The position numbers were made by a program, and so were the translations under genes. Of a DNA stretch of 64,000 bases, positions 32,282-37,618 are shown in pieces. Source of the stretch: a phage; the NCBI GenBank assembly GCA_031520405.1, contig GCA_031520405.1_4842.1. One strand, given 5' to 3'. Position 1 is the first letter of the stretch, and each line of letters starts with the position of its first letter. A model generated the notes under the pieces. It was not told the origin of the DNA. It did no database searches and saw nothing but the letters and a program-made list of their open reading frames with translations.

Positions 32282-32964
32282 TCATGAGCAATATGTCAGA
32301 AAGGTTACTCGCCACACTTGATGCGGTGACTGCCCGAGACGAAGTTGGGAAGGAGGCAATGGAGGCTGTCGCCCCTCGTCCAGGTATTGACTTCGATGAA
32401 AATACAGGTGAATGGTTTGGTGAACGTCCGGAAGGGTATCAGCCGATTCCTGAACCGCCTTCATTGGAGGATATTGCTTCCAAGGAATCCAAAGTACCTG
32501 AGTTTGCGGACACTGATGCTACAACGGATTACAAACGGATACGCGACACAACATATGCCATGCAAGAAGCCACAATGTTCATGATGGGACAAGCCGCTAA
32601 ATTGGCTGCATCCACAGAAGCTCCGCGAGCATTTTCTGTTTTCCGTGAATTGGGTGAACTCATGCGAGGTCTGAATAAAGACTTGATGGAAAACCAGAAA
32701 ACCATCAAGGCGGTAACAGGTGATAAAGAACCACCTGTTGATGACACGACAGTGGATGTTACAACTTCACCAGACGGAACAACAACAGTATCGGTTGGGA
32801 AAAAGGCGCGATCTTCTCGCGATTTATTGAAGACGATCGAAGATGCACGCCGCCGCGCTGAAGAAAGAGCACAAGCAAAGGCCGCACAACAACCAGAAGA
32901 TGAAATCATTGATGGTGAAACAGTTGATGTGAAGGAAGAAGACGATGGCGTATCAGAAGCGTGA
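32278..32964 (+). CDS. terminase small subunit (gp16-like)
   Basis: position immediately upstream of and overlapping the terminase large subunit; charged C-terminus. Confidence 0.5.
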   Translation: MIMSNMSERLLATLDAVTARDEVGKEAMEAVAPRPGIDFDENTGEWFGERPEGYQPIPEPPSLEDIASKESKVPEFADTDATTDYKRIRDTTYAMQEATMFMMGQAAKLAASTEAPRAFSVFRELGELMRGLNKDLMENQKTIKAVTGDKEPPVDDTTVDVTTSPDGTTTVSVGKKARSSRDLLKTIEDARRRAEERAQAKAAQQPEDEIIDGETVDVKEEDDGVSEA

Positions 32965-35155
32965 TATAGAATATGCCCCAATTAAAACGGGGTTCAAAAT
33001 AGACGATGTGAAATTGCGTATGGACCAAACGTTCATGCGCAAACCTTCTGTGCGTGCTCCTCGAGTCGAGTTAATGCTGACAGATGAACAAGAAGACGAA
33101 TTCGTTGAATGTTCTATGGATGCACACTACTTCGCCGCCAACTATTACAAGATAACCACGATCGATAAGGGCTTTATCCTTTTCGATATGCATGATTATC
33201 AGAAGCAGTTGTTCCACGACTTTCAGGACTATCGATTTAATGCGGTCGTCCAGGCTCGTCAGTCCGGAAAATGTGTAAAAGGCGACACGCTTGTCACAGT
33301 TTACGATACTCTCAGCCAAGAGGAGTTGCTCCTGACTATAGGGGAGCTTCACAGCCGCTTCGAGGACGTCAACCACGCTGTGCCGCTGAATACCATTGGC
33401 AACCATGACAAGTTCGTGGACAGCCGCTTCGGCAAACGTTACTTTGTACAATCCGATAGTGGCTGGGTTCCGGTTATCGCAGCGCATAAGACGAAGAAAT
33501 ATGCGGAATTCGTTATTGTCACCGTTACCGGAAGGCGAATTAACGTGGCTGATGAACATATGTTCTTCACTCCGGACATGAAGGAGATATTTGCCAAAGA
33601 CCTGAATGCTGGGTCATACATCATGACGACAGAAGGTCCAGAAGAAATCCGTGAGATTTGGCAGACTGGTGAATATCACCATATGTACGATCTTCAGGTC
33701 AAATCTAGTGATCAACGTTATTACACGAATGGCTTTCTCAGTCATAACACGACCGTGGTGGCGGCGTTTCTTCTTTGGTATGCGATGTTCCATTCTGATA
33801 AGGAAATCGCAGTACTGGCAAACAAAGAGAAACAAGCGATAGAAATTCTTGACCGTATCAGAAAAGCATACCAAGACCTTCCATTCTTCCTTCAGCAGGG
33901 TTGTGAGAAGTTTGGTTCTACCCTGATAGAGTTTGAGAATGGTTCTAAGATATACGCTTATGCCACGTCTTCGGACTCCATCCGTGGTCGTTCTGTATCG
34001 CTCTTGTACGTTGACGAAGTCGCGTTTATCGAAAACGACTTTGAATTTTGGGAATCAACTTTCCCAGCCATTGCATCTGCCGATACATCACGCTGTATTT
34101 TGACAAGTACTCCGAAAGGCCAGCGAGGGTTGTTCTATGATATTGTCACCAAAGCAGATCCGCGCCATCCACAATACAACGACTTCCACCTAACTGAAGT
34201 CCCATGGTATAAGGTTCCGGCATATACCAAAGATCCAGATTGGGAAACCAAACAACGTGCCCGTCTGGGGGATGCTCGTTTCGATCAAGAATTTGGCATT
34301 AAGTTCCGTGGTTCCGTGGGTTCATTGATTCCGGCCAAATGCTTAGATAAAATGACGTCCAAGTTGTATCGGGAACCTAATGAATTCACCAAGATTTATA
34401 AGGAATACGACCCACAACGTCTCTACTTTGGGATTGCGGACACTGGGAAGGGGGTGGAAGGAGATTATTCCGTCTTAACAATTCTGGATATAACTGAATA
34501 TCCGCATGTCATAGCAGCCAAGTACAGGAATAATACGATACCTCCTATGATGTATGCATACACGATAGCTGATATGTGCACCGAATACGGGGAATGTCCT
34601 GTCCTTGTTGAAACAAACAACGACGTCGGCGGTCAGGTTATTACAATTCTTTATCAAGAGATAGAATATCCAGAAATCATATTCACATCAACAGATAACA
34701 AAGGGACGGGGAAACGGATTGGTGGACGTAAACCGGAACCTGGTATCAATACCAACAGAAAAGTCCGATCTATCGGTTGTGCTAACCTGAAAGCGCTCAT
34801 TGAGAAAGAAATGTTGGTGATAGAAGACCAGGACACGATAGATGAACTCAGTACATTTGTGTTCAAAGGCGCTCGGTATGAAGCCGATGACGGTTGTCAC
34901 GATGACTGTGTCATGCCGTTGGTCTTATATTCATGGGCAGTAAAACAAGAATGGTTCAGTGATTTGACATCTACAAGTATTTCTCAGGACATGAGAAACC
35001 GAATGTCTTCAACTGAATCTCAGCAGGTATTCCCATTTGGTGGTTTAGTCGTTGGAGACACCCCATCCGAAACTGAGCATTTGCCTGGTTTCGGGGGTAT
35101 TCAAGTTTTCAACGAAATGTCAGGGATGACCATGGATGAGTGGGTTAAGAATTGA
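32945..35155 (+). CDS. gp17: terminase large subunit, T4 gp17-like, interrupted by a mini-intein
   Basis: flanking sequence RQSGK / TTVVAAFLLWYAMF...LYVDEVAFIEN matches remembered T4 gp17 RQLGKTTVVAIFLAHF...IYIEDCAFIPN. Confidence 0.85.
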   Translation: MAYQKRDIEYAPIKTGFKIDDVKLRMDQTFMRKPSVRAPRVELMLTDEQEDEFVECSMDAHYFAANYYKITTIDKGFILFDMHDYQKQLFHDFQDYRFNAVVQARQSGKCVKGDTLVTVYDTLSQEELLLTIGELHSRFEDVNHAVPLNTIGNHDKFVDSRFGKRYFVQSDSGWVPVIAAHKTKKYAEFVIVTVTGRRINVADEHMFFTPDMKEIFAKDLNAGSYIMTTEGPEEIREIWQTGEYHHMYDLQVKSSDQRYYTNGFLSHNTTVVAAFLLWYAMFHSDKEIAVLANKEKQAIEILDRIRKAYQDLPFFLQQGCEKFGSTLIEFENGSKIYAYATSSDSIRGRSVSLLYVDEVAFIENDFEFWESTFPAIASADTSRCILTSTPKGQRGLFYDIVTKADPRHPQYNDFHLTEVPWYKVPAYTKDPDWETKQRARLGDARFDQEFGIKFRGSVGSLIPAKCLDKMTSKLYREPNEFTKIYKEYDPQRLYFGIADTGKGVEGDYSVLTILDITEYPHVIAAKYRNNTIPPMMYAYTIADMCTEYGECPVLVETNNDVGGQVITILYQEIEYPEIIFTSTDNKGTGKRIGGRKPEPGINTNRKVRSIGCANLKALIEKEMLVIEDQDTIDELSTFVFKGARYEADDGCHDDCVMPLVLYSWAVKQEWFSDLTSTSISQDMRNRMSSTESQQVFPFGGLVVGDTPSETEHLPGFGGIQVFNEMSGMTMDEWVKN
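33272..33748 (+). mobile_element. mini-intein (159 aa) in the terminase Walker A P-loop
   Basis: begins Cys-Val-Lys-Gly-Asp-Thr-Leu-Val, ends His-Asn, +1 residue Thr; excision restores GK-TT; too short for an endonuclease domain. Confidence 0.8.
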
Positions 35156-37159: not shown

Positions 37160-37618
37160 ATGATATACGCATACAAAATTGAAACGATAACTAATGGAAA
37201 GGTCTACATCGGTGTGACCAATGACCCACAACGAAGATATGATCAGCATTTTGCGAATGCTTTTCATCATGGAGTCCAAAGTGAATTGTATGATGCCATG
37301 CGTAAGTATGGAACATCTGGATTTACTTTCGTTGTAATTGCTCAGACCGATGAAGTCCATAAATGGGAATTAGAGAAGCAACTCATCTCTCAATATAATT
37401 CTTATGAGATGGGTTACAACATGAATAAAGGCGGTAATGATGGAAGTCATATGCTGGGTAAAACTGCAGCAAAATTGACATCCACAGGTGAACACATTGG
37501 TCTTGTTTCTCTCATAGATCCCCGTTGGGAATTGTGTGAAATCGAACCCGTTTTAAGCAATGTTGACCACGGATTTGATTTTTCTTCCATGAAGATTAAA
37601 AGATTGACGACTAATTAG
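37160..37618 (+). CDS. free-standing GIY-YIG homing endonuclease (Seg-like)
   Basis: N-terminal IYAYKI...KVYIGVT...RRYDQH matches the GIY-YIG signature; inserted between sheath and tube genes. Confidence 0.75.
   Translation: MIYAYKIETITNGKVYIGVTNDPQRRYDQHFANAFHHGVQSELYDAMRKYGTSGFTFVVIAQTDEVHKWELEKQLISQYNSYEMGYNMNKGGNDGSHMLGKTAAKLTSTGEHIGLVSLIDPRWELCEIEPVLSNVDHGFDFSSMKIKRLTTN

Follow-up and report, generated by a model that had tools for sequence, protein, structure and literature searches.

Insertion of an intein between the Lys and Thr residues of a Walker A motif (K|T) has been described as a classic P-loop insertion (Kelley et al. 2016; PMC5050341), and the mycobacteriophage terminase intein TerL1-a is positioned in this way, with the invariant Lys on one side and the nucleophilic Thr on the other (PMC5050341). 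Five mycobacteriophage terminase inteins that were tested, TerL1-b, TerL1-c, TerL1-e, TerL6-f and Pham3880-g, all spliced in a reporter, and splicing of mycobacteriophage TerL inteins has been argued to be necessary for function and for pentamer assembly (PMC5050341). In 'fractured' gp17 terminase genes, as documented by Dassa et al. (2009; PMC2677866), the coding sequence is divided, and trans-splicing has been reported for related split TerL inteins (reviewed in PMC11766414). An intein in the large terminase of Salmonella phage Maynard was reported by Tatsch et al. (2013, Genome Announc.; PMC3868846), and the GenBank records of Salmonella phages Maynard and Marshall and of Klebsiella phage Magnus annotate this TerL intein with the wording "intein from Cys110-Asn268". 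In the searchable literature, we found no experimental study of a contiguous Ackermannviridae TerL intein, only the Maynard genome announcement.

The window, the whole 64-kb stretch of DNA that was analysed, is 99.6% identical in nucleotide sequence to CBA120 and comes from a CBA120/ViI-like Kuttervirus (Ackermannviridae). Its TerL precursor gene (T4 gp17-type; 32945..35155, plus strand, as are the exteins, intein and splice residues located below) encodes 736 aa plus a stop codon and is identified by its ORF, by Pfam and by a match to the CBA120/SPTD1 TerL at 99.6% nucleotide identity, in agreement with the sequence-only reading that the host gene is a large terminase. Pfam Terminase_6N (PF03237) matches residues 269-460 (E=2.8e-16; 60.2 bits, cut-off 22), and Terminase_6C (PF17289) aligns with residues 498-656 at 20.9 bits, slightly below the 22.6 cut-off. 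T4 gp17 aligns over the full length of the protein, and this alignment confirms the LGKTT P-loop that the sequence-only reading gave for gp17. The locus has the features of a T4-type large terminase, namely an N-terminal Walker A ATPase, a C-terminal RNase H-like nuclease and the gp16-gp17-gp18 gene order, present here as gp14-gp15-terS-terL-sheath with terS upstream and the sheath gene downstream of terL. Downstream, terL is followed about 2 kb beyond its end by a GIY-YIG gene. There is no second TerL and no second intein in the 64-kb window.

The precursor sequence reads ...VVQARQSGK|CVKGDTLV...(159 aa)...TNGFLSHN|TTVVAAF, with the insert in frame inside the Walker A motif (RQSGK|TT), after its Lys and before its Thr. 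The N-extein (aa 1-109; 32945..33271) closes with the first half of this motif, ...VVQARQSGK, which aligns with ...SRQLGK in T4 gp17 and ...RQSGK in intein-less terminases. The C-extein (aa 269-736; 33749..35152) holds the remainder of the ATPase domain and the RNase H-like nuclease domain, as delimited by the Pfam domains and the T4 gp17 alignment. The intervening 477 nt (33272..33748; 159 aa, Cys110-Asn268 of the precursor) very probably encode a functional class-1 mini-intein, without an endonuclease domain, that excises itself from the Walker A motif of this Kuttervirus TerL and so restores the enzyme. Both the extent of the insert and its placement between Lys and Thr had been given correctly to the base from the letters of the sequence. 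With the insert taken out, a 577-aa protein remains that contains the contiguous sequence RQSGKTTVVAAF; the masses predicted for the precursor, spliced TerL and intein are 84.5, 66.2 and 18.3 kDa, respectively.

The Cys1, His-Asn and Thr+1 signature on which the sequence-only reading was built is invariant, or nearly so, among the homologs. Cys1 (TGT, 33272-33274), the putative N-terminal splicing nucleophile, opens block A (CVKGDTLV) and is invariant in the contiguous homologs and in all homologs that include the N-terminus of the intein; the intein has no other Cys. Block B is Ala-Asp-Glu-His (intein residues 93-96; 33548..33559, with the His96 codon at 33557-33559) and aligns, at the block B His, with the inteins Cat, VidaL and gp41-1; A93, D94 and H96 are invariant in the alignment of 67 contiguous and split homologs. 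Ala is present where many inteins have Thr, as is also the case in VidaL, and this Ala is invariant among the TerL intein homologs. Block F Asp140 (GAT, 33689..33691), within the motif HMYDLQV, is invariant in the 67 homologs and aligns with the YDL/YDF of solved inteins. Block G consists of the penultimate His158 and the presumed cyclising terminal Asn159 (CAT AAC, 33743..33748; Asn codon 33746-33748), both invariant in the 67 homologs and in every Ackermannviridae allele. Thr+1 (Thr269, ACG, 33749..33751) is the predicted C-extein nucleophile and would, once splicing has occurred, supply the Thr of the Walker A GKT; in nearly all homologs HN is succeeded by TT, which in intein-less alleles comes immediately after GK. 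Across the 67 sequences, the invariant splice residues hold down to ~30% identity. A short helical linker is predicted at intein residues ~32-45, the region in which split relatives are divided.

When the insert alone was searched against Pfam, as the sequence-only reading had proposed, Intein_splicing (PF14890) was the sole family matched and its cut-off was passed narrowly (E=6.3e-9; 36.3 bits versus 35.8). TIGR01445, in an alignment that starts at residue 1, was similarly marginal (24.9 versus 24.5), TIGR01443 aligned with residues 139-159 at 12.2, below its cut-off of 15.6, and with the full precursor both PF14890 (29.6) and TIGR01445 (19.3) scored under their cut-offs. A PDB search with a profile of eight homologs matched nine sequences, all nine of them inteins, with gp41-1 the best (E=5.6e-10), followed by VidaL (3.8e-9) and Cat-TerL (2.7e-5); CatC is the best single-sequence PDB match (E=0.003). 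With the intein alone as query, a protein-database search gave just two matches, one a mature-peptide entry (Maynard/Marshall) and the other a fragment, and the AlphaFold model based on this two-sequence alignment (pLDDT 45) was discarded and replaced by one based on a 67-sequence alignment obtained by searching with full-length TerL. The resulting AF2 model (pLDDT 96.6, pTM 0.89) is one compact, beta-rich domain, and the HINT fold is confidently predicted. With this model, every one of the top 50 Foldseek matches in the PDB is an intein or an intein-like HINT domain, VidaL being the best (E=3.4e-12), with TM scores up to 0.80. Neither Pfam nor the AF2 model reveals a homing-endonuclease domain in the insert, as had been anticipated from its length of 159 aa; larger inteins, of 422-448 aa, occupy the same site in other TerLs.

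The marginal HMM scores, together with the presence of the insert in nearly all enterobacterial Ackermannviridae at a constant length of exactly 159 aa, as might be seen with a conserved domain, could be taken to indicate a degenerate HINT-like domain that no longer splices and is kept permanently in TerL in a structural or regulatory role. This is very improbable, as such a protein would have its Walker A Lys parted from the Thr, an arrangement incompatible with nucleotide binding, and no catalytic splicing residue varies, not even the terminal Asn and Thr+1, which are relevant solely to splicing. Homologs also exist as naturally split halves that are workable only by trans-splicing, the reaction reported for related split TerL inteins (PMC11766414), and in intein-less alleles with 74-85% extein identity the GKTT is intact.

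Relative to T4 gp17 (SRQLGK|TTVVAIF), the insert is a clean indel. The junction is uninterrupted in the Vibrio Ackermannviridae, with Vibrio phage 1.244.A, in Erwinia phage Bue1/phiEa2809 and in the metagenomic TerLs P0015-P0019, the last being the GKTT-containing alleles with 74-85% identity. Insert-free TerLs are found both within the Ackermannviridae and beyond. The alignment to insert-free terminases suggested by the sequence-only reading thus favours an intein, and the opposite outcome that it had envisaged, a domain conserved across related terminases, is not borne out because related terminases without the insert exist. Over 250 isolated, plaque-forming phages have the intein in their only recognisable TerL, and many CBA120-like genomes in the databases share the exact allele of the window (100% aa identity). 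Where dS is unsaturated, the intein dN/dS is 0.05-0.08, which shows the protein to be under purifying selection; between the two main alleles the ratio is not computable because synonymous sites are saturated. T4-like phages have introns and free-standing homing endonuclease genes, the GIY-YIG gene beyond terL being a nearby example, and the interruption might in principle be removed at the nucleic-acid level, by a group I intron or similar, or be an artefact of assembly. Both are hardly credible for an in-frame insert that contains no stop codons, whose product is confidently predicted to fold as a HINT domain and is subject to purifying selection, and that is identical in sequence in dozens of independently sequenced genomes; Rfam matches in the window are to three tRNAs and to no intron.

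For a functional mini-intein, translation would generate an 84.5-kDa precursor with an interrupted ATP-binding loop (GK / 159 aa / TT). The intein would then fold as a HINT domain and excise itself, with an N-S acyl shift at Cys1, attack by Thr+1 on the resulting thioester, and cyclisation of Asn159, assisted by His158, that releases the 18.3-kDa intein. An O-N shift would then establish a normal peptide bond, restoring RQSGKTT in the 66.2-kDa TerL, and only this spliced protein would be expected to bind ATP and package DNA. We infer that the intein splices from the viability of the phages and from the experiments on related split TerL inteins; the chemistry proposed, and the dependence of packaging on splicing, are inferred as well. 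The intein may persist because any imprecise deletion would ruin a motif that is essential.

Thr is less nucleophilic than Cys or Ser, and with Thr at the +1 position splicing could proceed slowly or conditionally. An active intein with conditional splicing might be a switch that controls the timing or gating of the terminase post-translationally, rather than being a neutral parasite. Its position in a catalytic loop, which ties activity strictly to splicing, and its retention across several genera are consistent with a switch, and such roles have been proposed for P-loop inteins by Kelley et al. (PMC5050341) and by Novikova et al. Regulation of this type is nevertheless distinctly unlikely here. 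With a single Cys, an internal disulfide trap is impossible, intein-less relatives are viable phages, and allele swapping and a sporadic distribution are in keeping with a selfish element.

Terminase genes that are otherwise near-identical have exchanged distinct intein alleles, and such exchange extends across subfamilies. The block that differs from the ViI-type allele (33268..33802) comprises the intein, 4 nt upstream and about 54 nt downstream. In comparison with locus L021, there are 132 mismatches in the 477 nt of the window's intein versus 0-2 per 100 nt in the flanks, and all eight of the differences in the downstream flank (33751-33802) are at third codon positions. The breakpoints of allele replacement hug the intein borders, with short co-converted extein tracts, and replacement crosses subfamilies, from Aglimvirinae RPN242-like phages to Kuttervirus. 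No notable repeats were apparent by eye at the intein borders. The intein has a GC content of 47.2% and a GC3 of 54.1%, versus 44.3% and 45.4% for the exteins, and as its GC3 is just beyond the range of equal-size extein windows, there is a weak hint of foreign composition. Spread would presumably occur by recombination between co-infecting phages. It is conceivable, although we rate it as rather unlikely, that the mini-intein is actively mobile among Ackermannviridae, with alleles swapped perhaps by the action in trans of free-standing homing endonucleases that these phages encode ('collaborative homing'); alternatively, the swaps are ordinary recombination.

The intein is real but ordinary, as the same intein, with the same residues, has already been annotated and published for sister phages. 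Phage TerL inteins, and specifically those at the P-loop Lys|Thr site, are textbook cases and this one adds little as a discovery. There is value for annotation, as the intein is unmarked in CBA120, the reference, and in many other Kuttervirus and Agtrevirus records that list a 736-aa terminase, where the mature enzyme is most likely a protein of 577 aa. The intein is also a compact, contiguous relative of the AceL-TerL/GOS-TerL/Cat split inteins used in protein engineering, available from easily grown phages of mesophilic enterobacteria, and the pattern of allele swaps makes these phages a tractable system in which to study how inteins that lack an endonuclease pass from one phage to another.

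Among known systems, the RadA intein of Pyrococcus horikoshii and mini-inteins from other P-loop ATPases, all with solved structures, share the HINT fold (TM 0.78-0.80 to the model of the window's intein). The RadA intein, which is likewise located in a P-loop and has a Thr+1, is in an archaeal recombinase and has 15-17% sequence identity with that in the window. The mycobacteriophage TerL1-a and TerL1-b P-loop inteins, as here, interrupt Walker A in the large terminase of a phage, but the host proteins belong to Terminase_1 rather than Terminase_6; some mycobacteriophage TerL inteins are class 3 and some have active endonucleases, unlike the intein in the window. The AceL-TerL and GOS-TerL inteins and the engineered consensus Cat (PDB 6DSL) are homologous in sequence to the window's intein, and the fractured genes found in this analysis are divided at the same GK|TT site of a T4-type TerL, one of them (locus L033) with a free-standing endonuclease gene between the intein halves. 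The split TerL inteins and that in the window have in common the ADxH block B and a C-terminus that reads YDL...YYTNG(I/F)LSHN|TT. The split inteins have, however, a short IntN of 25-37 aa and a long IntC of about 104-124 aa that act in trans, whereas the intein here is contiguous, encoded in one uninterrupted reading frame, and so falls outside the atypically split TerL inteins encoded by two genes. The Maynard, Marshall and Magnus TerL intein is the same as that in the window in host protein, insertion point, length, residue numbers and splice-junction motifs, the window having a CBA120-type allele that is 78.6% identical to Maynard and 76% identical to Magnus in protein, and about 72% in DNA.

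The large terminase gene (terL) occupies 32945..35155 on the + strand, an open reading frame of 2,211 nt that encodes 736 amino acids. The DNA is 99.6% identical to the large terminase genes of Escherichia phage CBA120 and Salmonella phage SPTD1, with Pfam matches to Terminase_6N at residues 269-460 (60.2 bits) and Terminase_6C at residues 498-656; the Terminase_6N match and the identity to CBA120 bear out the host gene named in the sequence-only reading. There are 263 phage records that match terL, nearly all from enterobacterial Ackermannviridae, and the genes are ordered neck gp14, gp15, small terminase, large terminase, tail sheath, GIY-YIG endonuclease, tail tube and portal. Together, these features indicate that the window is a segment of a Kuttervirus genome. 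Two records with TerL sequences 99.5-99.6% identical to those of Salmonella and E. coli Kutterviruses, OR844942.1 (Enterococcus phage Efm 3-10) and MN871475.1 (Pseudomonas phage Pa-sanjiao), probably have host names that result from mislabelling or contamination. Three tRNA genes (Ser-GCT, Asn-GTT and Met-CAT) are also clustered on the - strand of the window (5698..7018), and ARAGORN and Rfam concur on them.

The terL insert begins with a Cys codon (33272-33274, + strand) and closes with an Asn codon (33746-33748, + strand). The junction DNA is cag tcc gga aaa / tgt gta aaa ggc gac acg ctt gtc ... agt cat aac / acg acc gtg gtg, translated as QSGK/CVKGDTLV...SHN/TTVV. Recomputation returned exactly the extent first proposed, 33272..33748 or 159 residues (110-268), and the same 577 amino acids for TerL minus the insert. 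Precursor, spliced TerL and intein have predicted masses of 84.5, 66.2 and 18.3 kDa, respectively. In protein alignments, the Walker A region is uninterrupted in T4 gp17 (SRQLGK-TTVVAIF) and in Vibrio phage 1.244.A, a member of the Ackermannviridae (CRQSGK-TTVVAAF), in agreement with the placement originally made, and the insert lies precisely between K and T in the window and in phages Maynard, Magnus and VAP7. A degenerate DNA pattern for the unbroken junction, QSGKTTVVAAF, was used to seek terL genes without the insert and matched four viral contigs. One is Erwinia phage vB_EamM-Bue1, with a TerL that aligns to the spliced form of the window protein in a single piece, at 77.7% identity over 574 amino acids. 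Among 120 database homologs, the site holds no additional residues in five metagenomic proteins (P0015-P0019; 74-85% identity), exactly 159 residues in 14, 150-183 residues in others and 422-448 residues in five, the last probably being endonuclease-bearing inteins. The alignments to T4 gp17, 1.244.A, Bue1 and P0015-P0019, all without the insert, thus indicate a clean indel in Walker A, and a conserved, non-splicing domain of 159 residues in all relatives is ruled out, as relatives without it exist. In Campylobacter phage CP21 (L006, 1994..3205), a homologous intein with 32% identity is located upstream of the site used in the window, by three residues, with the junction RQ/C...SHN/SSKST and Ser+1. 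The terminase ORF annotated there has only 403 aa, and another ORF comes after it.

Scored alone, the insert narrowly exceeds the cut-offs for Pfam Intein_splicing (36.3 bits, E=6.3e-9; cut-off 35.8) and TIGR01445 intein_Nterm (24.9 bits; cut-off 24.5), and both fall under the cut-off when the whole protein is scored. A PDB search with the single intein sequence gave four weak matches, all inteins, headed by CatC, a consensus atypical TerL split intein. With a profile of eight homologs there were nine matches, again all inteins, including gp41-1 (5.6e-10), VidaL (3.8e-9), Pab CDC21-1 (6rpp; 1.5e-6) and Cat (2.7e-5). Across 67 contiguous and split homologs, with identities down to ~30%, K47, G64, T74, A93, D94, H96 (block B), M138, D140 (block F), H158 and N159 (block G) are invariant, as is Cys1 wherever the homolog sequence includes the intein N-terminus; Thr+1 is nearly invariant. 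The Cys start, His-Asn end and Thr+1 recognized from the sequence alone are conserved features. A two-sequence alignment gave an AlphaFold model with a pLDDT of only 45, and we used the model from the 67-sequence alignment, a single compact beta-rich domain (pLDDT 96.6, pTM 0.89). Its 50 top-ranked Foldseek hits among PDB structures comprise only inteins and intein-like HINT domains, the best being VidaL (E=3.4e-12), with TM values up to 0.80 for the P. horikoshii RadA intein. As had been surmised, the 159 residues have neither room for, nor any sign of, a homing endonuclease domain. In pairs with measurable synonymous divergence, the intein dN/dS is 0.05-0.08, which argues that the intein protein itself is under purifying selection. 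By every in silico criterion, the insert is an intein.

Based on the established class-1 pathway, splicing would proceed by an N-S acyl shift at Cys1, trans-esterification through attack by the Thr+1 hydroxyl and cyclisation of Asn159, aided by His158, with RQSGKTT then restored by an O-N shift. Nucleotide binding by P-loop ATPases needs an intact GK(T/S) loop and no second TerL was found in the 64-kb window, and so packaging must, we infer, depend on splicing. The presence of the intein in over 250 isolates that form plaques speaks for its splicing. Trans-splicing has been reported for the related split TerL inteins AceL-TerL, GOS-TerL and Cat (review PMC11766414), and splicing in a reporter for mycobacteriophage TerL inteins (PMC5050341); no experimental study of the contiguous Ackermannviridae intein was found in the literature searched. 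We conclude that the insert is a real element and, almost certainly, a functional one.

This intein, of a well-studied kind, is already known, annotated and published in sister phages. The GenBank record for Salmonella phage Maynard notes an 'intein from Cys110-Asn268' with mat_peptide features, and those for Marshall and Klebsiella phage Magnus mark the same element, in Magnus as 'terminase large subunit precursor' plus 'intein'. The CBA120 RefSeq entry (NC_016570; L027 20001..22211) lists a 736-aa 'terminase large subunit' without an intein or mature-peptide feature, as do most matching records, and one Dickeya phage record labels the terL product 'pretoxin HINT domain protein'. A mature enzyme of 577 amino acids is expected. 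The allele-swap pattern is the sole part perhaps worth follow-up.

Two mini-intein alleles, CBA120-type and ViI-type, share ~72% nucleotide identity, and the remainder of the terL genes that carry them is up to 99% identical. Relative to L021, a Se-J-like Kuttervirus, the window's extein DNA is 99.0% identical (dS 0.045) whereas the intein DNA is 72.3% identical (132 mismatches in 477 nt). Comparison of 33268..33802 with L021, L001, maane (L010) and LPST94 (L025) revealed that the block divergent from L021, 33268..33802, consists of the intein, 4 nt upstream and ~54 nt downstream, with the downstream differences all at third codon positions and 0-2 mismatches per 100 nt in the flanks. The ViI-type allele is 99-100% identical among Kutterviruses with exteins up to 12% different. 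Over 33272..33670, compared with L034, L035 and L011, the window allele is 92-94% identical to those of RPN242 (L034) and fGh-Ecl02-like (L035) phages, with exteins just 77-78% identical. RPN242 is filed under Aglimvirinae and fGh-Ecl02 under Kuttervirus, yet their exteins are 96% identical. For the final ~80 nt of the intein and the ~60 nt that open the C-extein, neither source gives a match. Upstream of its intein, maane retains silent sites of the RPN242 type, and the LPST94 intein is chimeric, its crossover lying near 33515. These identity contrasts and breakpoints indicate that the history of the intein differs from that of its host gene, and argue that alleles are exchanged by recombination, also across lineages with widely diverged terminase genes, without an intein endonuclease.

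Such exchange may be plain homologous recombination or may, alternatively, be stimulated by free-standing endonucleases, which are common in these genomes. The window has a free-standing, 152-aa GIY-YIG homing endonuclease gene (37160..37618, + strand; Pfam E=1.3e-11) flanked by the genes for tail sheath and tail tube, the position of orf195 in CBA120. In Dickeya phage LIMEstone1, F-LimIX, a NUMOD3-motif homing endonuclease gene (L023 1309..2193), lies between terS and terL, ~0.3 kb upstream of the intein site, and L022 also has an insertion at this position. The adjacent TerL N-terminus is altered, with MAYEIDWAPE / MAYKKEIDWAPE in place of MAYQKRDIEYAPI, and L015 has this altered N-terminus without the inserted gene. 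In Vibrio phage 1.244.A._10N.261.54.C3 (L003 628..3778), the Ackermannviridae TerL without a P-loop intein has a frame that diverges downstream into GIY-YIG-like sequence (...YVGITKRSMQERWKEH...), followed by a second 'terminase-like' ORF; this terL seems to be interrupted elsewhere by another mobile element.

The compilation of Novikova et al. has 22 Terminase_6 inteins, and in the work of Dassa et al. (2009; PMC2677866) a gp17-type terminase is 'fractured' by a split intein whose C-terminal part, at 122 residues, is unusually long. The same arrangement is present at 4405..7752 in L033, a T4-like ENA metagenome contig of 158,844 bp. The first gene (117 aa) encodes the N-extein plus a 31-aa IntN, ending ...SRQAGK/CVEKSTMV...HKLAK*. 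The second, free-standing gene (417 aa) has no Pfam family match and, by eye, a Vsr-like C-terminus, and is probably an endonuclease. The third starts with a 124-aa IntC, ending ...YYTNGILSHN/TTTAAA, that precedes the C-extein. Dozens of database proteins of ~560-600 aa have the same start as this IntC gene, and these and the fractured locus identify the window intein as the contiguous form of a known family, with large, mini and split variants at one T4-type TerL site.
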